From IMG/VR virus record IMGVR_UViG_3300031228_000002, positions 1-41,221 of that record: a DNA stretch of 41,221 nt. One strand, given 5' to 3'. Shown here one piece after another: positions 810 through 41,204 of the stretch. Position 1 is the stretch's first letter; each line of letters begins with the position of its first letter. A program made the translations under genes and the position numbers. The stretch comes from a virus. The notes below the pieces were generated by a model, which saw only the letters and a list, made by a program, of their open reading frames with translations, was not told the origin of the DNA and ran no database searches.

Positions 810-1844
810 TCAGGCGGCGTTTCCGGTGAGGAGCGCGGTCATCTCCCGCAGTTGCGCGGCACCGGCCTGCGCGATGGGGAGGCCGTAGGACTGCTCGAAC
901 TCGGCGTCGAGGTTGTCGAGGCCGACCTTCGCGGCGGCGGCGCGCAACTGGTGCTCGGCGACATCCGCCTCGGACGGGCCCTCGGTGACGCTCTCCACCA
1001 CCACGGCGTCCACGACGCCGTCCTCGTCCGGCTGGTCACCGGCCGGTGCGGGCTTGGCGAGCTGCTGACCCCGGGCGATCAGATACGCGCCCAACTCCTG
1101 CGAGTCCTCGCCCACCTTCACCGTGGCGGCGAGGAGACCGGACGCGTTCGCCTGCCGGTACAGCTCCTTGACCACGGCCTGGTCGGTCGTCGTCCCGGCG
1201 GCGTCGGCGTGGGCCTGCTCAGGCGTGATGGTGTCTTCGCCCTGTTGCGGGCCGGGTGTGGCCCACTGGTCGGTCTGGCCGGGCTCGACACGGCGCAGCT
1301 GCTGCACCGGGGCCTCCACCGGGATCCCGTCCGCGTCAACGTTCGCCCCGAGCTCTTCCGGCGTATAGATCGTGCCCTGCAAGATCTCCGAGCAGGCGGC
1401 GCGCGCTACCTCGGTGATCGCCCGGGCCTTCAACATCGCGGCCGGGAAGTTCTTCCACGTGTCCTTGCCGGTCAGCCTTGCGGCCTGCGCCCGCTCGATC
1501 GTCCACACGACCTCGAAGGTGAAGTCGGGGTCATCGGCGCGGATGATCTGCGCGACCGCGCGCCGGTCGTCGCCGTTGACGCGCAGCTTGTGACCGGCCC
1601 GTCGGACGAGACCGGCGATCAGGTCAGCGGACGCGGTCGGCTTGCCGTTGATGACGTGGATCGACTGCACGGCGGTCAGCGGGGCGACGCCGAGTGTCTG
1701 CCCGTACGAGATGGCCCACAGCAGGTTGGCCGGCTTGCCCTGGTACTGCCGGGGCAGCAGGTCGGAGGCGGCCATGGCCTTGGCGTAGTCCATCTGTGCG
1801 GCGAGGGCGCCGGGTTCGAAGGTGGCGGGGAGATTGGTGGTCAC
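810..1844 (-). CDS. recT: RecT-family single-strand annealing recombinase (344 aa)
   Basis: The N-terminal half fits the RecT pattern (MDYAKAMAASDLLPRQYQGKPANLLWAISYGQTLGVAPLTAVQSIHVINGKPTASADL). GTG start in a GTGA overlap with the upstream stop. Confidence 0.85.
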   Translation of the reverse strand: MTTNLPATFEPGALAAQMDYAKAMAASDLLPRQYQGKPANLLWAISYGQTLGVAPLTAVQSIHVINGKPTASADLIAGLVRRAGHKLRVNGDDRRAVAQIIRADDPDFTFEVVWTIERAQAARLTGKDTWKNFPAAMLKARAITEVARAACSEILQGTIYTPEELGANVDADGIPVEAPVQQLRRVEPGQTDQWATPGPQQGEDTITPEQAHADAAGTTTDQAVVKELYRQANASGLLAATVKVGEDSQELGAYLIARGQQLAKPAPAGDQPDEDGVVDAVVVESVTEGPSEADVAEHQLRAAAAKVGLDNLDAEFEQSYGLPIAQAGAAQLREMTALLTGNAA

Positions 1845-3497: not shown

Positions 3498-3701
3498 TCA
3501 GGCAGCGGCGCGCTGGGCGAGCCGGTCGCCGGCGGTCTTGGCCGACATCCACCGCTCGACATCGCGGACCGCGTAGAGGACTTCGCGTCCGACGCGGACG
3601 CCCTTGGGGCCAAGGCCGCGGTGGCGCATCTGCCTGATGGCGTGGGGGGTCTTACGGATGTGAGCCGCGAGTTCCTTCGTCGTCATGTACGGCGTATCCA
3701 T
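3498..3701 (-). CDS. Excisionase-like HTH protein (candidate Xis/RDF, 67 aa)
   Basis: From ATG 3701. TTKELAAHIRKTPHAIRQMRHRGLGPKGVRVGREVLYAVRDVERWM fits the HTH_17/MerR-type excisionase pattern. It lies next to the cro-like, cI-like and int genes. Confidence 0.6.
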   Translation of the reverse strand: MDTPYMTTKELAAHIRKTPHAIRQMRHRGLGPKGVRVGREVLYAVRDVERWMSAKTAGDRLAQRAAA

Positions 3702-3915
3702 GCCGTTCGCCTCCGTTCGTTTCCGGTTCGAGGTCCTGCACGGTGCAGCCGAGTTGGTTGGCGATTCGTGCGAGGACTTCGGGCTGAGGGTCGCTCTGGC
3801 CGCGTTCGATGCGGGAGAGGTGTGATGCAGAGACTTCGGCTGCGGTCGCGAAGTTGCGCAGGCCGTAGCCGCTGGTTTCGCGTCGCCTCCGGATCCCGGG
3901 TCCATCGGCCTTCAT
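3652..3915 (-). CDS. Cro-like Xre-family HTH regulator (87 aa), first gene of the early operon
   Basis: From ATG 3915. GYGLRNFATAAEVSASHLSRIERGQSDPQPEVLARIANQLGCTVQDL is an HTH_3 motif. It is divergent from the CI-like gene. Confidence 0.7.
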   Translation of the reverse strand: MKADGPGIRRRRETSGYGLRNFATAAEVSASHLSRIERGQSDPQPEVLARIANQLGCTVQDLEPETNGGERHGYAVHDDEGTRGSHP

Positions 3916-4118
3916 GGCGGAGACGATACGCAACGAACGGAAGGGATGCAAGGGGACGCGTTGGGATGGTTTCCGTTCGTGGCGGGGAGTGACGGCGGTG
4001 CTGCTTTCAGGTCACATTCCGGGGGTGCTCTCGCGCGCCGTGCAGGTCACCCTTACTCTGTTGCTGTTTGTTGCGCATCGTTGTGCGCATTTCGTTGACA
4101 GGAGAAGAGGCCACCCCC
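3916..4118. promoter_or_regulatory. Divergent cI-like / cro-like switch region with operator-like repeats
   Basis: A 10-bp inverted repeat acgaacggaa (3933-3942) / ttccgttcgt (3971-3980). Direct caggtcac at 4008-4015 and 4043-4050. TGCGCAT at 4072-4078 and 4084-4090. GC is lower than in the flanks. Confidence 0.6.
3923..3951 (-). promoter_or_regulatory. Candidate early promoter giving a leaderless cro-like mRNA
   Basis: On the minus strand: TTGCAT (3951-3946), a 17-nt spacer, TATCGT (3928-3923), then 7 nt to ATG 3915. Confidence 0.4.
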
Positions 4119-4526
4119 ATGAACCGCGACCCAGAAGCGTGGGCCCGGCTCGGCCGCGCACTCCGCTCCGCACGTGACCACCGAGGACTCACACAGCAAG
4201 AACTCGGAGAGATGGCCGGCACCTCCGGCCGCGCCGTCCAGGACGCAGAGGCCGGCACTGTGCCGAAAGCGCGCATGCCCTACACGCTCGGACGGATCGC
4301 GTCCGCACTCGGCTGGCCAGAGGGCGCCGTCGACGCGGTACTCGAAGGAGCAGCTCCGCCGGGTGAAGGGTGGCGCGATGTTCCGGCGCAGGCCGATGTT
4401 GAGGAGCGGTACGAGTCGATCCTCACGAACGCCATGGTGCGGGCGATGGAGGGGACGCCCGCTGCGGAGATCAAGAAGGCAACGAAGATTGCGTTGGACG
4501 AATTTCGCCGACAGGGCCTCTTGTGA
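4119..4526 (+). CDS. CI-like Xre-family repressor (135 aa)
   Basis: ATG 4119 follows GGAGAAGAGG. RGLTQQELGEMAGTSGRAVQDAEAG is an HTH. Plus strand, upstream of the integrase. Confidence 0.7.
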   Translation: MNRDPEAWARLGRALRSARDHRGLTQQELGEMAGTSGRAVQDAEAGTVPKARMPYTLGRIASALGWPEGAVDAVLEGAAPPGEGWRDVPAQADVEERYESILTNAMVRAMEGTPAAEIKKATKIALDEFRRQGLL

Positions 4527-4651
4527 AGACGTTCGGCGTACAACCTTCAACAATCCGTGCCAACGCATAGCGACCAAACGGTCACACAGCATATGCTCCC
4601 GCAACCGGAGCTAACCGCTCCAGGCAGCGTCTACGCGCGGGGAGCAGCAGC

Positions 4652-4855
4652 ATGCCCAACCCCAGAGTCTTCACCGCTAACCTCGGGCCCAAAGTCGCCG
4701 CGGTCACCACGCAAATTGATGGGGAACCTGCGGCGGTCATCAACACACAGGCCGCGTACGACATGACGCTCCGCCGCCAGGCGGCGTGGGCGCTCCTGTG
4801 CGTCGGCCTGGACGCCGGACTCATCCTCGGAGCGCTTCATGGGATACGTCGCTGA
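4652..4855 (+). CDS. Small membrane protein between repressor and integrase (67 aa)
   Basis: GGGGAGCAGCAGC precedes the ATG. C-terminal hydrophobic helix AAWALLCVGLDAGLILGALHGI. It overlaps the int start by 17 nt. Confidence 0.5.
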   Translation: MPNPRVFTANLGPKVAAVTTQIDGEPAAVINTQAAYDMTLRRQAAWALLCVGLDAGLILGALHGIRR

Positions 4856-6101
4856 CCGCTGGCACAAGACCCGGCCCGGGCCGGACGAGCCGGAGTGCGG
4901 GGAGCACAAGGGCCGGGTTGCCTCGAAGGCGCACGGCGTCGGCAAGCGATGGCAGGCCCGCTACGACGACCCGAACGGACGCGAGATCACCAGCCTCTGG
5001 GCCACCAAGGCTGAGGCAGAGCGGGAGATCAACAAACAGGAGTCGGCGAAGCAGTCCGGTTCCTGGCTCGACCCGAAAGCCGGACAGATCACGGTAGAAC
5101 GCTTCGCACTGGACAGCTGGCTCCCGGCTCAGAACATCAACGGGCGCTCTGAGGCCGAGTACCTCGGGGCACTCCGTCGCTATCTGTTCCCCGCATGGGG
5201 CAGTCGGCAGATCCGATCCATCAAGCCGTCCGAAGCCGGCGCCTGGCAACAGTCGCTGACCAGCGAGCACAACCTGTCTGGGCAGTACCCGAACCGTGTG
5301 GCCCGGTACGTTCGCGGCGTGTTCAAACTGGCCGTCATCGACCGCGTCATCGCTGTGTCCCCGTTCGAGCAGATCCCAGCGCCGACGCTTGTCGAGTCGA
5401 CAGTCCAGCCGCCGGACGTCGCCGAGGTGAGGCAGCTCATTGCGGCCGCGCACAAGCCGATGTGGGGTGCCCTCCTCGAGGTGACCGCGCTGACCGGACT
5501 GCGGTCGGGAGAGGTGCGCGGCCTGACCGTGGACCGGACCGACTTCCTGCGCCGCACCCTGCATGTCGAGCAGCAGCTCGTCCAGGAGAAGAAGGGCGCC
5601 ATGTACCTGGACAAGCTGAAGACCGGAGCGGGGCGCCGCGTGGTGCCGCTGACGCAGCGCGCGGTCGATGTCCTTGCCGCGCACCTGGCGACCTATCCGC
5701 CGCGTACCGATGGCGACTGGCCGGGGCTCGTGTTCGCGCTGCCGCTCGGGAAACCGATCCAGGAGTCGTCACTCGACTGGGCTATCAAGAACATCTGCCG
5801 CCGCGCCGGGGTGAAGCCGCGGCACTGGCACGAGCTGCGCCACCACTACGCCTCGGTGCTGATCGCCGGGGGTGAGAACCCGAAGGTGGTGCAGAAGCGG
5901 CTCGGGCACAAGGACGTGATGACCACGCTGCGGACGTATGCGCACCTGTTCGCGGAGGCGGAGGAGCAGACGCGATCCGTTCTGGATGCGGCGTGGGCGG
6001 TCCCGGGTGAGACTGGCTCGGAGGCGGAATCTCTTGAGCAGGGCGGAAGGATTCCGGAATCCCGGAGCGGAGAGGGCGATGTTGTGCAGCTCAGGGCATA
6101 G
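4839..6101 (+). CDS. int: Tyrosine integrase (420 aa)
   Basis: C-terminal catalytic motifs HELRHHYASVLIAGGENPKVVQKRLGHKDVMTTLRTYAHLF. Typical actinobacterial N-terminus MGYVADRW. Confidence 0.9.
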   Translation: MGYVADRWHKTRPGPDEPECGEHKGRVASKAHGVGKRWQARYDDPNGREITSLWATKAEAEREINKQESAKQSGSWLDPKAGQITVERFALDSWLPAQNINGRSEAEYLGALRRYLFPAWGSRQIRSIKPSEAGAWQQSLTSEHNLSGQYPNRVARYVRGVFKLAVIDRVIAVSPFEQIPAPTLVESTVQPPDVAEVRQLIAAAHKPMWGALLEVTALTGLRSGEVRGLTVDRTDFLRRTLHVEQQLVQEKKGAMYLDKLKTGAGRRVVPLTQRAVDVLAAHLATYPPRTDGDWPGLVFALPLGKPIQESSLDWAIKNICRRAGVKPRHWHELRHHYASVLIAGGENPKVVQKRLGHKDVMTTLRTYAHLFAEAEEQTRSVLDAAWAVPGETGSEAESLEQGGRIPESRSGEGDVVQLRA

Positions 6102-6416
6102 GCCGGGACATCACGCCTGGATGTTCCAGGCGGAGAGCGCATGACGAGGTCAGGGTGTCGGATCGGGTTTCACCTGGGGTTTCGTGTGTGACGACGTATC
6201 CCAACGCATCTAATGACGTCATCCGAACGGACGGAATTTCCCCGGAATCTGGCACCCGAGCGGAACGCTTCCGGAACGTCAGACACCCTCTGACCTCTGG
6301 AACATCCGCCCACGAGTCCCCAGGAAGCAACGCTGCTCCGACCCCCGTAGCGGGGTCGGAGCAAAAGCGACCGTTTGGGTACTGACTCGTGATCATGGTG
6401 CGCGAAGCGTGGCGGT
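6102..6416. other. attP-containing region (core not resolved)
   Basis: Non-coding and lower in GC, immediately 3' of int. Contains a cluster of CGGAA(T/C) repeats at 6222-6279 and the 10-bp palindrome atgacgtcat at 6213-6222. Confidence 0.5.
6335..6362 (+). terminator. Hairpin downstream of int
   Basis: Perfect 11-bp stem gctccgacccc / ggggtcggagc with a 6-nt loop. No U tract. Confidence 0.45.
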
Positions 6417-6659
6417 GTGTCCGTTCGCCGCACCCCCCTACCAGCGCACGTCATCGAGCGCCGAAGACTCCTCGGTCTCCGCATCGCGCAACTCCGGCGC
6501 GCCGCCGGCCTGTCCCAGGACCAGCTCGCCGAACGTGCCGGCCTCGAGCGCCGCAGTATCCAGCGCTACGAGAGCGGCGAGCGAGACCCCCGCTTCACGG
6601 ACCTCGTCCTCCTCGCCGAAGGGATCGGGACCACGGTCGAAGACCTCGTCTGCGAGTGA
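6417..6659 (+). CDS. Xre-family HTH regulator (80 aa)
   Basis: GTG start. LRIAQLRRAAGLSQDQLAERAGLERRSIQRYESGERDP is an HTH_3 motif. Confidence 0.7.
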   Translation: MSVRRTPLPAHVIERRRLLGLRIAQLRRAAGLSQDQLAERAGLERRSIQRYESGERDPRFTDLVLLAEGIGTTVEDLVCE

Positions 6660-20703: not shown

Positions 20704-22524
20704 TTACGGGGCCGGGGCGGTGCAGGACAGGTTCGCCGCGCCGGTGACGCCCATGTTGCAGATGTCCGTGAGGGTGTAGAGCCGCTGGCCCTGGCACGGG
20801 AACAGCGTGGTGAAGCCCTCCTCCGCGAACAGGCTCGTGAACAGGTTCTGCTGCAGCGAGGCGGCGTCGTACACGTTGGTCAGCGTGACCACGTCCTGCC
20901 GGCCGACGACGACGGACCCGGCCGGGTAGGACAGGAAGCTGACGTCGTTCGGCAGCGCGGTCAGGTACGGCGGGGTGATGATGCCGCCCGGCTCCGTCGG
21001 GTCCAGCGCGCCACCGGTGATGAGACCGTCCTGCCACCCGCGCACGAACTGCACGCGCACGTTGCGGACGGAGAACATGCTGGCGATCTCCGCGTCGGTG
21101 ACGCTCAGCATATCGACGCCGTTGCGGCGGGAGAGGTCCGCGCGCATCTGCGCGAGGATCCACCACGGGTAGACGATCTCCACAGTCGAGTTCGGGTCCA
21201 TCATGAACTCGGCCCGGGTGTCCACGGCCGCCAGCTCTGCGGCGGCGAGGATGGCCGACGTGAAGCTGTCCGGCCCGGACGCGGGCGCGGGGATCGCGGT
21301 GGCTGCTCCGGCGCGGGCGATGATGTCGGCGATGATCCGGCGGTTCATCTCCTGCTCGAAGATGGCCAGCAAACCGTCGGTCCAGGCGTTGACGACCTCC
21401 GGGTACCCCTTGGCCTGGAGGAAGCTGACCCGAATGCAGAGGGCCATGACGTCGAGGCGTGCCTCTTCGAACTCCGGGCACGGCAGCTCGATGCACGTCT
21501 TCGGCGTGTCGGCGATGACGTCGGCCTCGGTGAGGAACGTGATGCCCGCAGACAGAGCTGCGGCATACATCGCCTGGAAGTTGATCTCATCGGTGTAGTT
21601 GACGCCACCGCGGCTGAGCGTGATGGACGGCAGGTCGAGGATGCCGACGCCCGCGGACCACTGGCGGCAGAGGTCGTAGTCGTTTTCGGAGGGGGCGCAC
21701 CATCCGGCGGCGGCGGTGAGGCTGGCCGTGCCGGCGTCGAGGTTGGCCTGCCACGTCTTGGCGAGGTTGCCGCCGTGGAGCCGGGTCTCATCGCGGGCGT
21801 AGGCGAGGACGGCCGGCCCGTTGCGCGGGTCGTCCACGACGAGGCGCTCGTCGCGGGTGCGGTGGAACTGCGCGATGGCGTGCCGGGCGCCCTTGCCGCC
21901 GCCGACCCGGCCGTACTGCGCGGCCGACGCGGTGAGCGCCTGGGAGATCTCGGTCAGGCCGTCGAACTCCTGGCCCGGCCGCTTGTCGACGTGTCCGGCG
22001 GCGTCGGTGGAGACGAACGCCCGGATGGTGGTTCCCTGCGCCCGCTGCGGGGTCTGTGCCGCCATGTCGGAGACGGAGGGGACGACCGGGGTGGACACGG
22101 TCTCGGTGGACGCCTGAACGCTGGTCGGCTCCACAACGGCCGCCGGTGGGGCGGCGGCAGGCTCCGGGGCCGCCGCGGGCGCCGGTGCGGCGGCGGGCTC
22201 GGGGAGCGGCTGGAGCGCGGCGAACGCGTCACGAGACGCCTGGGCGGTAGCGGCGGCCTCGGCACGGGCCTGGATCTCGTTCTGAATGGGCGCGATGCGA
22301 GCGGCGAGCTCCACCAGTTCCGCGAGCTGCTCGGGCTCGGGAGCCTCGATGGCAGAAAGTTCGTTGCCTCGGGTGCGGATGCGCTCGTGCTCGGCTGCCA
22401 GGGCGCCGTCGTCGAGCGCGGTCGGGTCGAACGGGGCGGGCTCGTTGCTGTCGAACTGGGCGACGGCACGAAGGGTCAGGGCGTCCCGGCGCGCCTGGGC
22501 GTTGCGGAGGATACGGCGGGGCAT
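20704..22524 (-). CDS. Capsid protein: coiled-coil scaffold/delta-like N-domain, Pro/Ala linker and HK97-like C-domain (606 aa)
   Basis: ATG 22524 follows GGGAGAA. C-terminus SFLSYPAGSVVVGRQDVVTLTNVYDAASLQQNLFTSLFAEEGFTTLF resembles the HK97 gp5 C-terminus. N-terminal ~190 aa are helical and PA-rich. Confidence 0.6.
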   Translation of the reverse strand: MPRRILRNAQARRDALTLRAVAQFDSNEPAPFDPTALDDGALAAEHERIRTRGNELSAIEAPEPEQLAELVELAARIAPIQNEIQARAEAAATAQASRDAFAALQPLPEPAAAPAPAAAPEPAAAPPAAVVEPTSVQASTETVSTPVVPSVSDMAAQTPQRAQGTTIRAFVSTDAAGHVDKRPGQEFDGLTEISQALTASAAQYGRVGGGKGARHAIAQFHRTRDERLVVDDPRNGPAVLAYARDETRLHGGNLAKTWQANLDAGTASLTAAAGWCAPSENDYDLCRQWSAGVGILDLPSITLSRGGVNYTDEINFQAMYAAALSAGITFLTEADVIADTPKTCIELPCPEFEEARLDVMALCIRVSFLQAKGYPEVVNAWTDGLLAIFEQEMNRRIIADIIARAGAATAIPAPASGPDSFTSAILAAAELAAVDTRAEFMMDPNSTVEIVYPWWILAQMRADLSRRNGVDMLSVTDAEIASMFSVRNVRVQFVRGWQDGLITGGALDPTEPGGIITPPYLTALPNDVSFLSYPAGSVVVGRQDVVTLTNVYDAASLQQNLFTSLFAEEGFTTLFPCQGQRLYTLTDICNMGVTGAANLSCTAPAP

Positions 22525-22638
22525 GGGTTCTCCCACGGCTCGATACGGACGGAATGATCACGTCACATCGATTGAGCCGGCCCGCAGCCAAGCGCCCGAT
22601 CATGCGGCACAGTCAGGATACGCCCGCGTCGAACGGGC

Positions 22639-22782
22639 CTACTTTTCGGCGGTGCGGGTGCCGCCCTTCTTCATGACCAACAGCTTGGACGCGCCCTCGC
22701 TCAGACCCGTGACCCGCTCACCGCCCGTGGTGACGACGGTGTACGTCTGCCGGGCGTTGCCCTTCCCGCATGCGCAAGGCAT
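22639..22782 (-). CDS. Small Cys-motif protein (47 aa)
   Basis: Not in the track. GGAGG lies 8 nt upstream. Sequence MPCACGKGNARQTYTVVTTGGERVTGLSEGASKLLVMKKGGTRTAEK. GC3 is very high. Confidence 0.55.
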   Translation of the reverse strand: MPCACGKGNARQTYTVVTTGGERVTGLSEGASKLLVMKKGGTRTAEK

Positions 22783-22785
22783 CGC

Positions 22786-23958
22786 TCATACCTCCAGTGC
22801 CGAAGTCGCCCACGACCACCGTGCGCGCGCTGTCTCATGATCGTAGGAGACCTGTGCCGGCTCCTCCGTCCCCTCCACCGGCGTGATGCCGAACGAGCCG
22901 ATGAACGTCCGCTGCGCCCCGCCCGAGAACGCCACACGCGCCCGAGGGACAGGGAAGCCGGGGGCGTTGACGCTGCACACCGCGATCAGCTCCAGCGCCC
23001 CGCCCACACGCCGCCAGTCACCCGACACCGGGGACGACCGGAACACCTCCACCGCCTCCGCCGTAGCCCCGGGCAGCATCCACCCGGACACCCAGATCCC
23101 GTACTCGTCCTCCCCGGCCACCACGCGGGCCACCGCGGCGGCCGGGTCGTCGTAGTGCTGCGCCGCGGCCTGGAACGCCAGGCGCGCGTCGGCGTGCCGG
23201 GGCCCGGCCACCAGCGTCCCGACCGGCACGGGGCCGCCTGTCGTCTGCTGCTCCCCGGTGTGGAAGTAGGCGTAGTTCGACAGCGACGCGGGGGCCGTGA
23301 CGCAACCAGGGAGCCCGATGTGGCACTGGCCCCACGGGGCGATGTGCCCGAACACGCGGCCGTCCTCCGTCACCGTGAGAGGCGTCACCCGGTCCAACTT
23401 CGGATCGGTGAACCACGTGAGCGGCGGCAGGACGGAGGTAGCGGGGGGAGCCGACGCGGTGAGGGCAAAGGCCGTCAGCGAGGTGCTGTACTCGTCCCAG
23501 TCGGCGTACCCGTCCGGCGCCACCGCGTCCGCCATCGGATCGGCAGGCTGCGGGTCCAGCGTCAGGGACACGTCCGCGAACGCAGGCACCGCGACCAGCG
23601 TCGCCCCGGCCACGCGCCACTGCGTGAGGACGATCCGCTCGTCCTCGTCCATGACGTACTCGATGTCGTCCAGGTCGACGGACGGGCCGATGACGCCGGC
23701 CTCCAACTGCTCGATGACGCCCGAGGACCATTCGGCGGAGTCGAGCATCGAGCCGGTGGCGAGGACCATGCCGTCGGCGAACCGGATGGTCTCGATGCGG
23801 CCGACGACGATTGACCCGCCGTGTCCGTCGTCGCTGCGTTCCTGGAACGCGAGCGGCAGGGGCAGGCTGCGGGATGCGGCCCCGGCGGGGTCGAGGATCC
23901 GTCCGTCGCCGGTCGGCACGCCCATGCGGGCCAGCACGGCGCTCCAAGTCCTAGGCAT
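22786..23958 (-). CDS. Capsid maturation (prohead) protease (390 aa)
   Basis: ATG 23958 follows AAGGAGAA. Position between the MuF-like and capsid genes. The N-terminal half resembles actinophage prohead proteases. Confidence 0.65.
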   Translation of the reverse strand: MPRTWSAVLARMGVPTGDGRILDPAGAASRSLPLPLAFQERSDDGHGGSIVVGRIETIRFADGMVLATGSMLDSAEWSSGVIEQLEAGVIGPSVDLDDIEYVMDEDERIVLTQWRVAGATLVAVPAFADVSLTLDPQPADPMADAVAPDGYADWDEYSTSLTAFALTASAPPATSVLPPLTWFTDPKLDRVTPLTVTEDGRVFGHIAPWGQCHIGLPGCVTAPASLSNYAYFHTGEQQTTGGPVPVGTLVAGPRHADARLAFQAAAQHYDDPAAAVARVVAGEDEYGIWVSGWMLPGATAEAVEVFRSSPVSGDWRRVGGALELIAVCSVNAPGFPVPRARVAFSGGAQRTFIGSFGITPVEGTEEPAQVSYDHETARARWSWATSALEV

Positions 23959-24319
23959 CGGAGTTCTCCTTGTCATAGTGGTCCAACTGGGCGCGCAGAG
24001 AGTTCACGCAGCTGCGTAGCTCCGCGCACTTGACCAGCGCATCGCCGAGGTTTTGCTCAGCCTCCGCCAGATCGGCTTCCAGCTTTCGACGCGGCGTGTT
24101 GTTCAGGCTGTCAGGCAGCAGCGATGCCGTGGATACTTCCAAGGCTGCGGCAACAGCAGTAAGGTCGGCCAACGTGAACGCTCGCCGTCCCTTCTCCGCC
24201 GCTGACACAGCCTGACGGCTCCATGGCTTGGTCATAGCCGCACCCAACTGCGCCTGCGACAGGCCAGCAGCCTCACGGAGCCGAGCCACCTTGGAACCAA
24301 CGATCTCTTCTGGGGTCAC
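23951..24319 (-). CDS. Xre-family HTH protein with C-terminal coiled coil (122 aa), compositionally atypical
   Basis: GTG 24319 is in a GTGA overlap with the MuF stop. ARLREAAGLSQAQLGAAMTKPWSRQAVSAAEKG is an HTH. About 36 of 122 codons end in A/T, against very few in the flanking genes. Confidence 0.65.
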   Translation of the reverse strand: MTPEEIVGSKVARLREAAGLSQAQLGAAMTKPWSRQAVSAAEKGRRAFTLADLTAVAAALEVSTASLLPDSLNNTPRRKLEADLAEAEQNLGDALVKCAELRSCVNSLRAQLDHYDKENSDA

Positions 24320-25110
24320 GGTCTCTGCCTGTCTGTCCAGTCCAGCTCTTCGCCCAGCACCACCGGTAGCAGGGAGCACCGGCAGTTGATCACCTCGTTC
24401 GCCGGGCCCGTCGGATCCCCGGGGAACAGGAGTGGCGCCCCGCCCACGATGAACGGCTCCATGAGCAGCGTGCGTTGCCGGTCCGCCTCATTGTGCGTCT
24501 TGCGGGTCCGGCGGTCGTCCGTCGCGAGCCACACCTTGAACGGCGCCACGTCCCCCCGGTCCTCAGCGTCCAGCATTGCCGAGCGGAACACCCCCGCGTT
24601 CACCGCTGCGATCGTCTCCGTGCGCGCCACCGTGCGCGCCCGGTGCGGCCACCGTTCTGACCCGGTGGCGGTGAGGACGGTCTCCACACGGGCGGCCAGG
24701 TCCGGGATGCTCTCGCCCTCACGCAGGCCCCTCTCCAACTCGGCGACGATCAGCGCGTACACCTCGTCCGGTAGGCGCACCAGCCGGTTGCCCACGCTGT
24801 TGAGGTAGTCGGCCACCCACGGATCGCCCACGGGGTCACGGCCACGCACCCGTTGAGCAGCGTCCCGCAGCACCCCGCCGACGGTCGGGACGATCTCCAC
24901 GTCCACTTCGTCGGTCCAGAACGCCTGATGATCCGACACCCGGCCCGGGTCGACCCCACCGCCGCGCAGCACGTCGGGGCGCACCCGGTCGAGGAAGCGG
25001 GTCATGGACCGGAACCAGCGCCGGGCCACCGTGGCCTCCCCCTGGCGGATGAACGCCTGTGCGCGCAGCCGCTGCGGCAGCCGGTCGTCGTCCGGGACCG
25101 GGCTGGTCAC
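24316..25110 (-). CDS. MuF-like / SPP1 gp7-family head morphogenesis protein (264 aa)
   Basis: RTETIAAVNAG ... DDRRTRKTHNEADRQ ... VINCRCSLLP motifs. GTGA overlap with the portal stop. Confidence 0.8.
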   Translation of the reverse strand: MTSPVPDDDRLPQRLRAQAFIRQGEATVARRWFRSMTRFLDRVRPDVLRGGGVDPGRVSDHQAFWTDEVDVEIVPTVGGVLRDAAQRVRGRDPVGDPWVADYLNSVGNRLVRLPDEVYALIVAELERGLREGESIPDLAARVETVLTATGSERWPHRARTVARTETIAAVNAGVFRSAMLDAEDRGDVAPFKVWLATDDRRTRKTHNEADRQRTLLMEPFIVGGAPLLFPGDPTGPANEVINCRCSLLPVVLGEELDWTDRQRP

Positions 25111-26918
25111 CGGCTGCGCCGCAACGCGTCGGCGAGCGTGGCCGGATCATGGGGCTTCCGCTCGGACAGAAGTCGGTAGGTGTACGACGTGAGAGTCATG
25201 TCGAGCCACTCCACCGGCACGCGGAACCCCTCAGCCACGCGGTCGACAAGCGTGAACGACCCCTCCAGCAACGGTGCGACGTCCGTCACCGGGATCACCG
25301 TGTGCAGCTCGTGCTTGGGCGTGGACGCGAACTGGCCCCGGTACTGGCGGGTGAGGAGGCGGCCGCCGGCGCGCGACAGGGCGTCGAACACCACGAGCTC
25401 GGCGGCGGCCACGAGCCCGGCCGGGACGTCGCCTTCGGTGTCCGGCTCCGCGCGCGACGTCGACGGCCCGGCGGCCGGCGTACCCGGCTCCAGCTCGGGC
25501 GCCCCCTCGATGGTCTCGTCGGAGACGCCAGCGGCCGCCGGGGCGATCTCGAACCCGAACAGTGCCTGCCCGACCTTCGGGTCGGCGGCCAGCGTCGGCG
25601 CGCCGATCACGATCCGCTCCAGGCGGCGGAGTTGGATCTCGTCCTCGGAGGGGATCGCGTCGTCGGGGATGCCGGACGCGGCGCGCCGGTAGTCGTCGGA
25701 GATCAGGCCGAGGTCGTACAGGTGGTCCAGGTCCTCAGTCTCACCGGGGCGCTGGACGATCGCGGAGGTGTCCCAGGCAAGGACGTACCGCTCCGGATCC
25801 TGCACGCCCATGGCTTCGAGGACGGGCCGGTACCAGTGCTCGGTGACCGCGTCCGCGATCCGGTCCAACAGGGGCTCGATGAAGATCTGGTAGGTGTCCT
25901 CGGAGATCTGCCACGCGGTCCAGTGGTTCGACTCGGCCTGTGTCCCCTCGGCCACGGGCTTGGGCATGTCGAGCGTGGCGGCCAGCCGGGACAGGGCGTC
26001 ACGGCGCAGCTCGGTGATCGCGGCGTCCATGGCCGTGGAGATGTCGAGGTGCTGGATCTGGCCGATGTACTCGCCCGGGATCTGGAGGACGATCGGCACC
26101 TGCGCGGATGCCTGACCGGGGTCGGAGAGGGATGCCTCCATGGCTTCCATGATGAAGAGCATGATGGCCTGCGCCACGGACTCGGCGTCGCCCTGCGGGA
26201 AGTCGATCTCCTGCGGGACCATCAGGAGGCCGTTGGCCGCGAGGCGGGAGTCGAGGCGGGCCGCGAGGTTCTGTGACGCCTTCTCGATCTCCCGCAGCGG
26301 TACGAGCGCCGGGCGCACCGCGCTGGTGGCCTGGGCCTGCTTGGCCGGGTGCGGCTTCCACACGCGGATCAGCCGGTCGTTGGGGCCCAGTTCGACGGGC
26401 AGCATCGTCTTGGGGTCGGTGTACGTCCACCGGTCGCCCTTGGGCTTCATCTCGTCGCCGGACAGCACGAGCCACTCATCAGGCTGCAGCACCCCACCCC
26501 GGGCCGGGCGGGGGCGGATGACGATGAAGCTCTCGCCGGGGATCTGCCAGTGGGTGGCGATGAGCTCTTGCATCTGCGCGCGCTGCGCCTGCCCGCCGAA
26601 CGCCAGGGCGGCTGCTGCCTGGGCCTGCTTGTTGTCGGTGGGCCCGGCGACCTTCCCGGTCTCCGGGTCCGTCTCAGCGGCGTACAGGTCCGCCTTGGAC
26701 ACGGCGTTGGCGATCCACTGGACCGGCGCCGACAGTTCGCCCACGGTGTCGTAGAAGTACCAGGCGTCTCGCTGCCAGCCCTGCGTCCCGGAGGCCTTAC
26801 GGGACGTGGCCAGCGCCCGCACACCAGGCCCGGACAAGGGCATGGCGGCGGCCATCACCGCCCGGGGTGCCTGGCTCGGTTCCGTGCGGGGGCCCCTCAG
26901 CCGGTCCAGTACGCCCAT
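25107..26918 (-). CDS. Portal protein (603 aa)
   Basis: Size and position after the terminase. WQRDAWYFYDTVGELSAPVQWIANAVSKADLY is a portal-like N-domain. Confidence 0.85.
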   Translation of the reverse strand: MGVLDRLRGPRTEPSQAPRAVMAAAMPLSGPGVRALATSRKASGTQGWQRDAWYFYDTVGELSAPVQWIANAVSKADLYAAETDPETGKVAGPTDNKQAQAAAALAFGGQAQRAQMQELIATHWQIPGESFIVIRPRPARGGVLQPDEWLVLSGDEMKPKGDRWTYTDPKTMLPVELGPNDRLIRVWKPHPAKQAQATSAVRPALVPLREIEKASQNLAARLDSRLAANGLLMVPQEIDFPQGDAESVAQAIMLFIMEAMEASLSDPGQASAQVPIVLQIPGEYIGQIQHLDISTAMDAAITELRRDALSRLAATLDMPKPVAEGTQAESNHWTAWQISEDTYQIFIEPLLDRIADAVTEHWYRPVLEAMGVQDPERYVLAWDTSAIVQRPGETEDLDHLYDLGLISDDYRRAASGIPDDAIPSEDEIQLRRLERIVIGAPTLAADPKVGQALFGFEIAPAAAGVSDETIEGAPELEPGTPAAGPSTSRAEPDTEGDVPAGLVAAAELVVFDALSRAGGRLLTRQYRGQFASTPKHELHTVIPVTDVAPLLEGSFTLVDRVAEGFRVPVEWLDMTLTSYTYRLLSERKPHDPATLADALRRSR

Positions 26919-27208
26919 CAGTCACCTTCCCTGGTGGCGAGCCACCCGCTCACGTACGACGCCGCGAGAGCGAGCGTCACGGCCTGGTATCCCATGGTCT
27001 CGCCCCAGGCCCACCACGCGGCGGCGCCGGCCGCGCCGACGTACATGGACATGCACCACGGGCAGGTCACCCAGTAGGCGGTCATGGAGTCGGGGCCGAA
27101 GCGTTCCATGATCCAGATGCGGGGTCGGTCAAGGATGCGGTCGGCGGTGAGCAGCCGTGTCACCCGGGCGACGGTGAGGAGGGTCAGGGCCACGGTGAGT
27201 GCGCTCAT
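26918..27208 (-). CDS. DUF1360-like membrane protein (96 aa)
   Basis: From ATG 27208. LLTVARVTRLLTADRILDRPR ... CPWCMSMYVGAAGAAAWW pattern. 1-nt overlap with the portal start. Confidence 0.6.
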   Translation of the reverse strand: MSALTVALTLLTVARVTRLLTADRILDRPRIWIMERFGPDSMTAYWVTCPWCMSMYVGAAGAAAWWAWGETMGYQAVTLALAASYVSGWLATREGD

Positions 27209-27215
27209 GCGGATA

Positions 27216-28670
27216 TCATCCCGCACCGGCCTTGCGGCGCCGTTCTCTTGCCTGCCGTGCCCGCTCCAGCGGGTGCACAGTCCCGGCTGCGCCGCGCATG
27301 CCGCCGCGCTGGTGGGGTGCGGCAATCGCGGCCTCGCCCCGGTCGTACAGTTTCACGTGCCGGGCCACGGCGTGCACGAGCGCGTCGACCCGGTCGGGGC
27401 TGTCGCTGTGCTCTTCGGGGATCCAGGTGCACATCTGGTCTTCGAGCTCGTGGAACTCTTCGGCGTGCACCGTGCGGTGCTGCTCGTACCGGGCCGCGAT
27501 CGGCTGCGCCCGCAGCTTCTTGCCCTGGCTCGCGTTGACCCGCTCCACGGGCATGGGGCCCTTGTTGCCCCGGTCCTTCCACACGGACCTGAGAGCCGCT
27601 TCGATCCAGTCCTTCCCGCCGTTGTCCTCCACGACGACCGTGGCGGCACCCCAGCGGGCCAGCATGTCGAAGGCGCGGTTGCCTGCCCGGTTCGGGGAGA
27701 GCTGCTCGGACTGGTCGTCCAGGACGTAGTCCCGGCCGTCCACGCCACGGGCCACGACGACGAGACCGGTCTCGTCCCCCTTACCGGTGCCGGCCGGGTC
27801 CATGCCGACCGTGACCGTGCGGAACTCGGGCAGCGGCTGCGCGGGGTCGTGGTGGATGATGTCGGCCCGCTTCCACAGGGCGCCCGGCAGGTCGTCCAGG
27901 ACGACGGCGTGGAGCTCCTGCGCGCCGAGCGTCGTGCCCTCGTACTTGGCCACGACGGCGCGGCGGAAGGTGGGGGCGAGGTTGTGGAGGTTGTCGTAGG
28001 TCGAGCCGCGGACGACCGCGGTCATCTCGTCCTTCAACAGGGCCTTGATCAGGGGCAGGGGCCGGGGTGTGGTGGTGATGCAGATCCGGGGGTGATCGCC
28101 GAGGCGCATGCCGAGTTGCAGCATGTCCCAGGCGTACTGGAGCCGCCGCCAGGACGCGAGTTCGTCCAACCAGCCGTAGTGGTGCTGGGGTCCGCGGAGC
28201 CGGTCTGGTTCGTCGGCGGAGTAGCAGATCTGGATGGCGCCGTTGGGGTAGGTGAGGCGGCGTTTGGACGGCTCGTACAGGGGCCGGAAGGTGGCGGGGG
28301 CGCAGGCCATGATCCCGGACTCGCCCTCGACGAGGATGTCCCGGGTGTCGGCCGCCGTGGGTCCGACGAGCGCCCCGCGCTCCAGGTTCCGGGCCATGGA
28401 GATCGCCCACTCGGCGCCGGTGCGAGTCTTGCCCCAGCCTCGGCCGGCGAGGGCGAGCCACACGTCCCACAGGTCGCCTTCGGGGGGCCGTTGGTCGGCT
28501 CGCGAGTGCGCCCCTGTGCGGCCGGGGTGGGGGCGGCCGTCGCACTGGGGGTCGGGGCAGAGCCAGGGGACGCGGCCGGACTCGCGGTCCTGGACCATCC
28601 GTTCGAGGGCGGCGTCGACCCGGAGGAGTTCGTCCGGCGAGAGTGCCGACAGCTCTGCCCGGCTGATCAC
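27216..28670 (-). CDS. terL: Terminase large subunit (484 aa)
   Basis: GTG 28670 is in a GTGA overlap with the TerS stop. Walker A-like LAGRGWGKT. Nuclease-domain pattern VGMDPAGTGKGDETGLVVV ... DRVDALVHAV. Confidence 0.9.
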   Translation of the reverse strand: MISRAELSALSPDELLRVDAALERMVQDRESGRVPWLCPDPQCDGRPHPGRTGAHSRADQRPPEGDLWDVWLALAGRGWGKTRTGAEWAISMARNLERGALVGPTAADTRDILVEGESGIMACAPATFRPLYEPSKRRLTYPNGAIQICYSADEPDRLRGPQHHYGWLDELASWRRLQYAWDMLQLGMRLGDHPRICITTTPRPLPLIKALLKDEMTAVVRGSTYDNLHNLAPTFRRAVVAKYEGTTLGAQELHAVVLDDLPGALWKRADIIHHDPAQPLPEFRTVTVGMDPAGTGKGDETGLVVVARGVDGRDYVLDDQSEQLSPNRAGNRAFDMLARWGAATVVVEDNGGKDWIEAALRSVWKDRGNKGPMPVERVNASQGKKLRAQPIAARYEQHRTVHAEEFHELEDQMCTWIPEEHSDSPDRVDALVHAVARHVKLYDRGEAAIAAPHQRGGMRGAAGTVHPLERARQARERRRKAGAG

Positions 28671-29140
28671 TGCGCCTCCAGGCGCTCCAGGTTGGCCAGC
28701 ACCTTCTCGAGGAGTCCGGCTTCCTTGCCCTCGGCCTTCATGCGCAGCGCGGCTTCCTGGGCCTTCGTGGCGGCGGAGAACGCCTGGGTCCACCGCACCG
28801 ACGGGTCGGTGTTGGTGGCCTCGAACTCGGTGAGCCGGTTGGCCAGATGATCAAGCAGTCGCTCGGACAGTTCGAGGTGCCGGCCACGGACGCGGCGCAG
28901 CTCGTCGGCGTGACCGTCGGTGCTGGCGGTTTCCATGTGCCGGTCATAGGCCAGGACTCGGGCGCCCCACTCGTTCCGGCTGGACCACTGGCCGACCACG
29001 GTGGTGGATTTGTCCAGCTCCTGTGCCACCTTGCGCACGGTGCGTGAGGGGCCCAGATTCAGGTACACCCGGAAGGCTTCGTAGGCGGGCGTCGACTCTT
29101 CGTCCCGGCGTGTCCAGGGGTAGGGCTCGTCCGTCGTCAT
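28667..29140 (-). CDS. terS: Terminase small subunit (157 aa)
   Basis: AYEAFRVYLNLGPSRTVRKVAQELDKSTTVVGQWSSRNEWGARVLAYD is an HTH typical of actinophage TerS. RBS GGGAGGG. Confidence 0.75.
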   Translation of the reverse strand: MTTDEPYPWTRRDEESTPAYEAFRVYLNLGPSRTVRKVAQELDKSTTVVGQWSSRNEWGARVLAYDRHMETASTDGHADELRRVRGRHLELSERLLDHLANRLTEFEATNTDPSVRWTQAFSAATKAQEAALRMKAEGKEAGLLEKVLANLERLEAQ

Positions 29141-40659: not shown

Positions 40660-41204
40660 GCGCGGGCCCCCGCCCCGGGCTGCGCGGGCAGTACGGCAGC
40701 GGCCGGCCCGGCAGGCAGCGGCAGCGCGCCCGTTCGCCACGCCTCGCCGATCGCGGCCTTCCCCTCATCCGGGACGGTCAGTCGCGTGTACGCCGCGCGG
40801 CCCTGCATCACGACGCCAGGCACCTCGTGGATGACGCCCGACTCGGGGTCGGCCCACTCGGCTGTACCAGCGGCCGTGAGCGCGGCGAGCACCTTCTTCT
40901 GGAACCCGGGCTTCACCTCGGTGACGAACCGGCGGGTGATCTCGCTGCCGTAGTTCTCAAGGACCCAGGTGGTGAACTTGTCGGGGTCGGTGACGGCGGC
41001 GGTGGGCTTGGGCTGGACGAGGCTCACGGTGCCGACGTCGGTGCTGTCGTCGAGGCTGACGGTGATCTTCTGGGTTCCGGTCTCGGCCTTGGCCTCCCGC
41101 AGGCCGGCTTCCAGTTCCTTCTTCGCGGTCTTCAGTTGGTCGCCGATGGCGTCGGCGAGGGTGGAGAGGACGGCGACGGTGCGCGCGGTGTCCTTGAGGC
41201 TCAT
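40656..41204 (-). CDS. Hypothetical early protein (182 aa)
   Basis: ORF track. AAGGAGA RBS. Its 5' end is duplicated at 1-78 by the terminal overlap. Confidence 0.7.
   Translation of the reverse strand: MSLKDTARTVAVLSTLADAIGDQLKTAKKELEAGLREAKAETGTQKITVSLDDSTDVGTVSLVQPKPTAAVTDPDKFTTWVLENYGSEITRRFVTEVKPGFQKKVLAALTAAGTAEWADPESGVIHEVPGVVMQGRAAYTRLTVPDEGKAAIGEAWRTGALPLPAGPAAAVLPAQPGAGARA

Follow-up and report, generated by a model that had tools for sequence, protein, structure and literature searches.

Why does a temperate phage carry a gene for an Xre-type helix-turn-helix (HTH) protein in the midst of its head genes? The question is raised by the open reading frame (ORF) of 122 amino acids (aa) at 23951-24319, on the minus strand, of the IMG/VR virus record IMGVR_UViG_3300031228_000002; the whole stretch of 41,221 nucleotides (nt) was analysed and is referred to here as the window. 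With its ~41 kb, the window represents a temperate phage or prophage. An earlier reading, made from the letters alone (the sequence-only reading), took the gene for a recent insertion into a block in which transcription regulators are not expected, and offered an anti-defence role among its explanations. We show that the HTH gene belongs to a large set of small, mutually exchangeable cassettes that occupy the gap between the genes for a MuF-like head morphogenesis protein and the capsid maturation protease in a lineage of temperate actinobacterial phages, and that in this lineage the MuF-protease fusion of cultured relatives has been split at the domain boundary. As to function, we tentatively favour a late-expressed, truncated repressor mimic that would act on the operators of other mobile elements, a reading to which we give a probability of about 0.4.

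A split MuF-protease fusion as insertion site

The head genes around 23951-24319 all lie on the minus strand, in the following arrangement:

20704-22536, minus strand: major capsid protein
22786-23958, minus strand: capsid maturation (prohead) protease gene, the downstream neighbour (phrog_859 positions 376-751, phrog_18402)
23951-24319, minus strand: cassette gene, a 122-aa Xre-type HTH with a C-terminal heptad helix (ORF, translation, Pfam)
24316-25110, minus strand: MuF-like head morphogenesis gene, 264 aa, the upstream neighbour (Pfam Phage_Mu_F, E=2.7e-12)
25107-26918, minus strand: portal
27216-28793, minus strand: terminase large subunit

The fusion profile phrog_859 has 807 positions, of which the window MuF protein matches 114-296 and the window protease 376-751; the protease also matches the 'head maturation protease' profile phrog_18402. 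Fused MuF-protease proteins are found in cultured relatives such as Gordonia phage NHagos (gp9, 805 aa) and Arthrobacter phage Odyssey395 (gp26, 887 aa), and tblastn with the protease led, in 859 actinophage records, to proteins annotated as capsid maturation proteases and to MuF-protease fusions. The two flanking genes of the window are homologous to the halves of these fusions and stand in the same order after the portal gene; however, what is one polypeptide in the cultured phages is here encoded by two separate genes with the cassette between them. The split point has become an insertion site. Formation of a MuF-protease product by simple read-through was considered and rejected: although the two genes share a frame, they are separated by four stop codons.

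Both junctions of the cassette are overlaps:

24316-24319, minus strand: left junction GTGA, in which the MuF stop TGA overlaps the cassette start GTG
23966-23971, 23956-23958 and 23951-23953, minus strand: right junction, with the AAGGAG Shine-Dalgarno sequence, a 7-nt spacer, the protease ATG and the cassette TAG

The HTH ORF thus runs from a GTG to a TAG; a 142-aa version of it (from GTG 24379), although open in the window, was discarded, as in two orthologous loci (L002 and L096) an in-frame stop codon stands shortly before the shared GTG. The protease ORF is open from ATG 23976, and ATG 23958 is its likely start because of the AAGGAG 7 nt upstream and of the alignment with relatives. Given this start, the cassette TAG falls within 'ATGCCTAG', in codons 2-3 of the protease, so that it lies 8 nt inside that gene, and the protease AAGGAG is located in the last codons of the HTH ORF itself. 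Both the GTGA overlap and the position of the stop had been correctly read by the sequence-only reading. With overlaps of 4 and 8 nt, there is no non-coding DNA at either junction.

Relatives were fetched from genomes and from IMG/VR with the window protease as the query. The HTH gene is present in two of 20 relatives that have both flanking genes and missing from the other 18 (L003, L007-L023), whose MuF and protease proteins are 64-76% and 63-71% identical to those of the window; this synteny comparison, which had been proposed beforehand, establishes the gene as accessory. Because most relatives are without it, the cassette is dispensable for the head module. Orthologues are known from five occurrences (the window, L001, L002, L096 and the P0046 group), every one in the slot between MuF and protease. 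They are 79% identical to the window protein in L001, a prophage of Streptomyces sp. NPDC088090 (GCA_044900705.1), and 85% and 84% identical in the soil metagenome contigs L002 and L096, respectively. P0046, with 135 aa and 44% identity, has the same ...SDG tail and the same junctions in a second lineage, the MuF and protease of which are 67-68% identical to those of the window. When the window (20704-26918) is compared with L001 (L001:7393-13553), MuF, HTH and protease are 66-79% identical and portal and capsid only 43-50%; to judge from these values, the MuF-HTH-protease block may have been exchanged as a three-gene unit. Among cultured phages, neither megablast of 22000-27000 nor tblastn of the HTH protein against 50,697 GenBank phages gave a match, and tblastn of the protease returned only relatives of less than 45% identity.

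The occupants of the slot

Twenty-one loci with common junctions hold at least nine unrelated gene families. Those other than the HTH gene, together with one gene found just outside the slot, are:

twelve loci, including L007:1133-1282 and L009:3855-4007: conserved 49-50-aa ORF (MDLATYHLIHGWP...)
L010:3364-3849, L019:2932-3411 and L020-L022: HNH_3 / zf-His_Me homing-type endonuclease, 159-161 aa (E=9e-17)
L011:3793-4020: Acb2/Tad1-hairpin protein (PF24729, E=2.5e-16)
L017 and L018: transmembrane peptides
further loci: four more unrelated small ORFs
L092:3623-3847: Acb2/Tad1-hairpin gene (PF24729, E=4.6e-14), directly after the protease gene in the head module

The commonest occupant is the 49-50-aa ORF (consensus MDLATYHLIHGWP.IPTDPEE.L.MVTQNEL.LDQDLLLYLWARSE), which has no Pfam match and whose GC content at third codon positions (GC3) is like that of structural genes (0.90-0.94, except 0.78 in L018); it may be the ancestral resident of the slot or a small head-assembly factor. 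The HNH_3 gene lies upstream of the 49-aa ORF, its start overlapping the MuF stop. A transposon-like or homing insertion of the HTH gene was rejected, since this cassette has no endonuclease and no flanking repeats; a search for transposon-like repeats at ~23600-24700 found only short, chance-consistent ones.

The cassettes are single genes of 49-161 aa, up to three in a row, without regulatory signals of their own. Whatever the cassette, the DNA alignment shows on the left a conserved ..GACTGGACAGACAGGCAGGACCC followed by (A/G)TGA and on the right 'GATGNCTAGGACNTGGAG', the latter common to all six aligned loci. Each cassette carries the GGAG of the protease in its own last codons and has its stop codon inside protease codons 2-3, and it is the GGAG in this position that gives unrelated cassettes the same acidic '...E-x-S-D-G*' tails. 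The first 60 nt of the protease gene are conserved to 0.80, as compared with a per-locus gene average of ~0.69-0.73, which hints, if weakly, at an exchange of cassettes mediated by their flanks.

The Acb2/Tad1-hairpin family PF24729 is one of anti-CBASS (cyclic-oligonucleotide-based antiphage signalling system) and anti-Thoeris nucleotide sponges, and Acb2 is encoded beside capsid genes. The anti-defence idea of the sequence-only reading is supported, as regards the neighbourhood, by the presence of such a gene in the same slot in L011 and after the protease in L092. Hotspots of accessory, defence and anti-defence genes are known in phages, for example in P2 and P4 (PMC9122126), and, like them, the slot is a fixed site between core genes at which unrelated small genes replace one another. 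It differs from the P2/P4 hotspots in lying inside the head-morphogenesis operon, exactly at the split of a fusion, and in holding cassettes without their own regulatory signals. What is new in detail is a cleanly bounded, overlap-coupled cassette slot at the MuF-protease split, with an Acb2/Tad1-type alternative occupant.

The position invites another explanation, namely that the HTH protein is packaged cargo, which would enter the procapsid by means of its helix and its MuF/portal/protease neighbourhood, be ejected with the DNA and act in the next host, before phage transcription, as a repressor or a DNA-end binder. Its gene stands between those of two internal head proteins and is translated along with them, much as the small prohead core proteins gp67 and gp68 of T4 are encoded between portal and protease, and delivery at injection would remove the problem of timing that a late-made repressor poses. 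Moreover, MuF-domain proteins are on record as carriers of effectors that the virion delivers (PMC5512222). However, there is no reason why other occupants of the slot (the HNH endonuclease, the Acb2-type sponge, the membrane peptides) should be packaged, so that position alone is no evidence, and short relatives of the protein also occur with a promoter of their own or in a reverse-oriented island (see below). We regard packaging as quite unlikely.

Fold of the product

The HTH_3 motif that had been noticed in the 122-aa ORF is well supported, Pfam HTH_31 (38.9 bits, cut-off 27, E=1.1e-9) and HTH_3 (36.7 bits, cut-off 23) both scoring above their cut-offs, with the gene on the minus strand. 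Three parts of the product can be placed on the DNA:

24125-24298, minus strand: HTH_31/HTH_3 domain, residues 8-65 (Pfam, AlphaFold2, Foldseek)
24194-24217, minus strand: predicted recognition helix, residues 35-42 RQAVSAAE, within KPWSRQAVSAAEKGRRAFT (helix 3 of the AlphaFold2 model)
23960-24094, minus strand: one helix of 45 residues (76-120) with hydrophobic residues in a 3-4 repeat (AlphaFold2, heptad count)

The AlphaFold2 model (mean predicted local distance difference test score, pLDDT, 87.5) has helices at residues 3-17, 22-28, 35-42, 50-60 and 64-67, in addition to the helix 76-120, in the core of which pLDDT reaches 93-96. Foldseek matches the N-terminal domain to C.BclI, C.AhdI, the BldD DNA-binding domain, ClgR and P22 c2 at a root-mean-square deviation (rmsd) of 1.1-2.3 Å, with a probability of 1.00 and 1.1-1.2 Å over 62-64 columns for C.BclI and C.AhdI and a target-normalised TM-score of 0.83 for the BldD domain; the BFVD fold search returned nothing beyond generic phage Xre proteins. 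Eleven of 13 a/d positions of the long helix are hydrophobic in one heptad register, and no more than seven in each other register. Moreover, L84, A87, L91, L95, L101 and L108 do not vary among four orthologues, one of which is the 44%-identical P0046. The product consists of an Xre/lambda-repressor-like domain of canonical type and, after it, a helix of five heptads, which is presumed to be a dimerising coiled coil; a C-terminal coiled coil had been proposed from the sequence, and the model agrees with it. The structure prediction likewise gives a genuine DNA-binding fold, not that of a scaffold. A scaffolding or essential head-assembly protein, the other candidate for a gene in this position, was rejected in view of the Xre fold and of the many relatives that have MuF, protease and capsid genes and not this one.

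Assignment to a named regulator is another matter. RstR, BldD, HipB-type antitoxin, DicA, restriction-modification (R-M) control protein and capH were all either far below cut-off or at the level of generic Xre similarity; the BldD profile, for example, gives 24.1 bits against a cut-off of 250 (NCBIfam equivalog) and RstR 26.6 against 80. SinR, ClgR, the R-M controllers and the BldD DNA-binding domain share with the phage protein the five-helix Xre fold (rmsd 1.1-2.3 Å) and the layout of an HTH with a helical tail, but their partner genes and contexts are not found around the phage gene and its sequence scores are far below the cut-offs of these families. BldD has, in addition, a C-terminal domain that binds cyclic di-GMP, and only its DNA-binding domain superposes on the phage protein.

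The best matches among solved structures being the R-M controllers C.BclI and C.AhdI, the protein could imitate an Xre-type controller of a host defence system, an R-M C protein or CapH, and so keep a defence operon repressed. PADLOC also reports 'Control_protein' (E=2.9e-6) and capH (E=4.8e-5; 2e-5 for P0046), and in L011 the slot holds an anti-CBASS-type sponge. These similarities are, however, weak and of a kind that any Xre domain would give, the regulators of integrative elements are much closer (55-65% identity), and CapH is not among the 50 Foldseek matches listed. Furthermore, C proteins and CapH adjoin R-M genes or a CapP protease and CBASS operon, whereas neither the window nor L001 has such neighbours. 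We consider imitation of a defence regulator very improbable.

Composition and age

The sequence-only reading had estimated that about 36 of the 122 codons of the HTH gene end in A or T, against flanks with G/C-ending codons and a higher local GC, and the counts confirm it in every part. A/T-ending codons number exactly 36 of 122, GC3 is 0.70 versus 0.88-0.93 in eight flanking head and packaging genes, not one of 5228 windows of 122 codons taken from 21 confident genes is as low (minimum 0.73), and local GC is 0.63 versus ~0.71-0.72. The contrast with the flanks is also seen in L001, L002 and L096. Two regulators of the window itself, the Xre genes at 3652-3951 and 4068-4526, have similar GC3 values (0.69 and 0.74); the HTH gene differs in composition from its structural neighbours, not from the rest of the genome.

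The conclusion that had been drawn from this composition, a recent insertion, does not hold. Synonymous divergence (dS) of the HTH gene is 0.69-1.08, equal to that of its flanks (0.94-0.97 for MuF, 0.70-0.81 for the protease), and the ratio of non-synonymous to synonymous divergence (dN/dS), 0.10-0.14 against the orthologues L001 and L002, points to strong purifying selection. All four copies (window, L001, L002 and L096) keep 34-37 A/T-ending codons and a GC3 of 0.69-0.72. The window and L001 have 18 A/T-ending positions in common, whereas another 18 and 19 occur in just one of the two; losses being balanced by gains, the low GC3 is a maintained state. A deviant GC3 that is in fact a steady state is, after the slot and the DNA-reading head discussed below, the third point that is new in detail. 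Longer relatives of the protein, encoded elsewhere, have a GC3 of 0.75-0.82. The most economical reading is that the low GC3 is the weak codon bias typical of regulatory genes and not a residue of foreign composition. Together with the distant orthologue in the same slot, these comparisons indicate that the HTH gene is a long-kept accessory gene and was not recently inserted.

Expression and short relatives in other head modules

Scans for consensus sigma-70-like sites and for the relaxed pattern TTGNNN-N16-19-TANNNT found no site within 500 nt upstream of the gene in the five orthologous loci, though such scans are weak evidence here, actinobacterial promoters being diverse. Likewise, no terminator-like site on the same strand was found for the HTH gene. 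Classical morons are extra genes between conserved late genes that have their own promoter and terminator and are expressed from the prophage; the concept is that of Juhala and Hendrix for lambdoid and HK97-like phages. The HTH gene resembles a classical moron in being present in some relatives and absent from others and in a composition unlike that of its flanks. In contrast to the autonomous moron, the cassette is tied into the operon through start and stop codons that overlap those of its neighbours, with neither promoter nor terminator detected.

Short relatives in other phages are arranged differently. P0057, in L178, encodes 108 aa (HTH and helix) and has a Phage_portal gene on one side and an HNH gene on the other, in a head module unrelated to that of the window; the HNH gene is followed by a Peptidase_S78 protease gene and then by HK97-type capsid genes. 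Its GC3 is 0.68, as against 0.92-0.95 in its flanks, and it has its own promoter, TTGTCA-N17-TGTCATACT, immediately before the ATG; to judge from the -10-like TCATACT, 6 nt before it, the start is probably leaderless. P0056 encodes 116 aa; its gene and one for an Rv1352-like protein of 152 aa, either membrane-bound or secreted, make up an island (L180:3544-4376) in reverse orientation among the head genes of another phage. That regulators are not expected in a head block, as had been assumed, is contradicted by this recurrence of short relatives in the head modules of unrelated phages, and their mode of expression appears to differ from one phage to another.

Two details of these loci may be added. 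In L178:6001-6974, P0057 overlaps the HNH gene (PF01844, 216 aa) by 4 nt, and a second HNH gene follows the capsid gene. The two-gene island of L180 has a classical moron-like layout.

The short relatives bear on the possibility that the HTH gene is an exclusion or immunity moron, expressed in the lysogen from a weak internal promoter and repressing incoming phages or elements with a matching operator. P0057, with its TTGTCA-N17-TGTCATACT promoter of the family type and its low GC3 within a head module, would fit, as would the reverse-oriented island of P0056, and polymorphic presence and deviant composition are classical moron traits. At the five orthologous loci, however, there is no intergenic space, and neither a promoter-like site within 500 nt nor a terminator was detected, which counts, if weakly, against an independent unit. 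A lysogen-expressed moron seems to us unlikely.

Relation to regulators of integrative elements

An exhaustive HMMER search gave 595 cluster representatives at E<1e-3, with only the gene's own cluster below 1e-30. The nearest non-orthologues are actinobacterial Xre proteins of 155-205 aa, with 55-65% identity across residues 3-70 and E values as low as 1.6e-15; they align over 40-77% of the window protein only. Helix 2 (AGLSQAQLG) and the recognition stretch KPWSRQAVSAAEKGRRAFT are identical in the window protein and in one of these long forms, P0006, and KPWSRQAVSAAEKGRRAFT is invariant across 15 family members. The genes of P0006, P0013 and P0010 lie in integrated elements with a tyrosine integrase or serine recombinase, HTH_17 and Prim-Pol/D5_N genes and, in two of them, an FtsK/SpoIIIE-type protein; the Xre gene is either divergent from an operon of HTH_17 and primase or adjoins the integrase gene. 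Several metagenomic relatives have the same integrative-element neighbours. Integrative and conjugative elements of actinomycetes (AICEs) universally have an integrase and a regulator of the GntR or XRE family (PMC2440964), and we read the elements of the long forms as AICE-like because their neighbours fit this gene set.

The phage protein and the long forms thus share an HTH domain (55-65% identical) and are both products of actinobacterial mobile-element genes with a GC3 below that of the genome (0.70 vs 0.75-0.82). In contrast, the phage protein is without the 4-aa loop (LGAY-type) and the C-terminal domain of ~100 aa (~90-130 aa among the long-form regulators), and has the 45-residue heptad helix instead. 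Their surroundings also differ, the phage gene adjoining MuF and protease and the long forms adjoining an integrase or diverging from HTH_17 and a replication operon. The phage gene is probably a stripped-down copy of a repressor used by other mobile elements, and the DNA-reading head common to the phage protein and AICE regulators is the second point that is new in detail.

Upstream of eight long-form genes lies a conserved promoter/operator, TTGTCAA-N13-TGTCATGCT-N6-GACA(C), whose GTGTC/GACAC inverted repeat overlaps the -10 region:

L087:7941-7990, L089:7944-7990, L090:7947-7990, L097:2936-2985, and in L098, L104, L118 and L119: long-form promoter/operator sites

By its position this operator looks autoregulatory and common to many soil actinobacterial elements. 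In the window, the family operator (TGTCATGCTG, TGTCA-N11-TGACA, GTGTC-N11-GACAC) is absent or at chance level, with 0 and 1 matches observed versus 0.5 and 2.9 expected by chance. IMG/VR has 115 exact matches to the promoter, but a family Xre gene comes after it in a single case (L243); the remaining matches, many of them in lower-GC contigs, are most likely due to chance or unrelated. These counts suggest that the operator is essentially not a phage feature.

The lysogeny module of the window extends over 3498-6659. It comprises an Xre gene (4068-4526, plus strand) divergent from a second (3652-3951, minus strand) that overlaps an HTH_17 ORF (3498-3905, minus strand), a tyrosine integrase gene (4767-6101, plus strand) and a third Xre gene (6393-6659, plus strand). 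All genes of the module have a reduced GC3 (0.69-0.81).

Such a phage could also use the protein on itself, as a late-made, Cro-like shut-off of its own early or lysogeny promoters that sharpens the late phase. The divergent Xre/Xre, HTH_17 and integrase genes at 3498-6101 of this temperate phage are a possible target, the GC3 of the cassette matches that of the phage's own regulators, and a place in the late operon provides the right timing. However, a gene missing from 18 of 20 syntenic relatives is no element of a core circuit, it has no evident similarity to the phage's own Xre genes (by inspection of the sequences, not by formal alignment), and the family operator is not found in the window, where other binding sites were not searched for. 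Self-regulation, although possible, is doubtful.

A proposed repressor mimic acting on other elements

We return to the repressor mimic, which we prefer because the HTH matches AICE regulators and because the slot has a counter-defence theme (Acb2/Tad1 genes in L011 and L092). The cassette protein would be produced late and alongside the head proteins, through translational coupling, and would dimerise as a coiled coil through its C-terminal helix. Its operator specificity may be like that of the AICE regulators, TTGTCAA-N13-TGTCATGCT-N6-GACAC, as the identity of the HTH suggests. Being a truncated repressor without the C-terminal domain, it would be constitutively active and blind to signals. 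Possibly, it binds the operators of co-resident elements (AICEs or others with that immunity) and keeps their early genes off while the phage multiplies, and it would play no necessary part in head assembly.

Several points weigh against this proposal. The operator specificity is deduced from nothing but the sequence identity of the HTH, and the invariance of the recognition helix is in part a structural feature of the whole family and in part a product of word-based ascertainment in one of the relative searches, a bias from which the exhaustive HMMER search is free. Late expression is a poor time to stop the induction of another element, and we know of no harm that AICEs do to phages. The short relative P0057 of L178 has its own promoter, which implies that members of the family may act in lysogens rather than late. 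Finally, with cassettes as diverse as those of the slot, position is a poor guide to function.

A bolder version, which we think distinctly unlikely, makes the truncated AICE-like master regulator an inter-element weapon: made with the head proteins and possibly loaded into the capsid by way of the MuF/portal/protease neighbourhood and ejected together with the DNA, it would clamp resident operators shut without answering the inducing signals. More broadly, on that version, the place where the fusion is split would serve as a docking site reserved for counter-defence cargo (the HTH mimic, the Acb2/Tad1 sponge and other genes), which could do without regulatory DNA of its own.

Other features of the window

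Two small genes lie elsewhere among the head genes. Between protease and major capsid genes, a 47-aa ORF (22639-22782, minus strand; GC3 0.89; …KKGGTRTAEK) has counterparts in L091 and L092 (…PKGGTRKAV…), and the cultured relatives also have a small gene there (NHagos gp10, Odyssey395 gp27). Between terminase and portal, a 135-aa ORF (26918-27325, minus strand) with predicted membrane-like segments (…WVTCPWCMSMYVG…) overlaps the 3' end of the terminase gene as called, and L001 has a 100-aa gene in the equivalent position; this site may be another accessory slot. No Rfam families were found in the window. ARAGORN calls a tRNA-His (955-1041, minus strand, 87 nt) and a tRNA-Ser (41005-41097, plus strand, 93 nt), both inside long, high-GC3 ORFs. 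These calls are probably false positives, since the length of the tRNA-His is atypical and Rfam has no tRNA at the gathering threshold.

Implications

Taken by itself, the HTH gene encodes an ordinary small Xre dimer in an ordinary variable accessory position of a phage late operon; on its model, the protein would work like a small dimeric repressor in an accessory-gene hotspot, and both are of known kinds. Its steady-state low GC3 cautions against taking deviant codon usage as proof of recent transfer. The slot is a cheap and high-yield place in which to seek new counter-defence genes in actinobacterial phages, and an HTH in common with AICE regulators, in a phage without their operator, offers a concrete instance, open to test, in which one mobile element may repress another.

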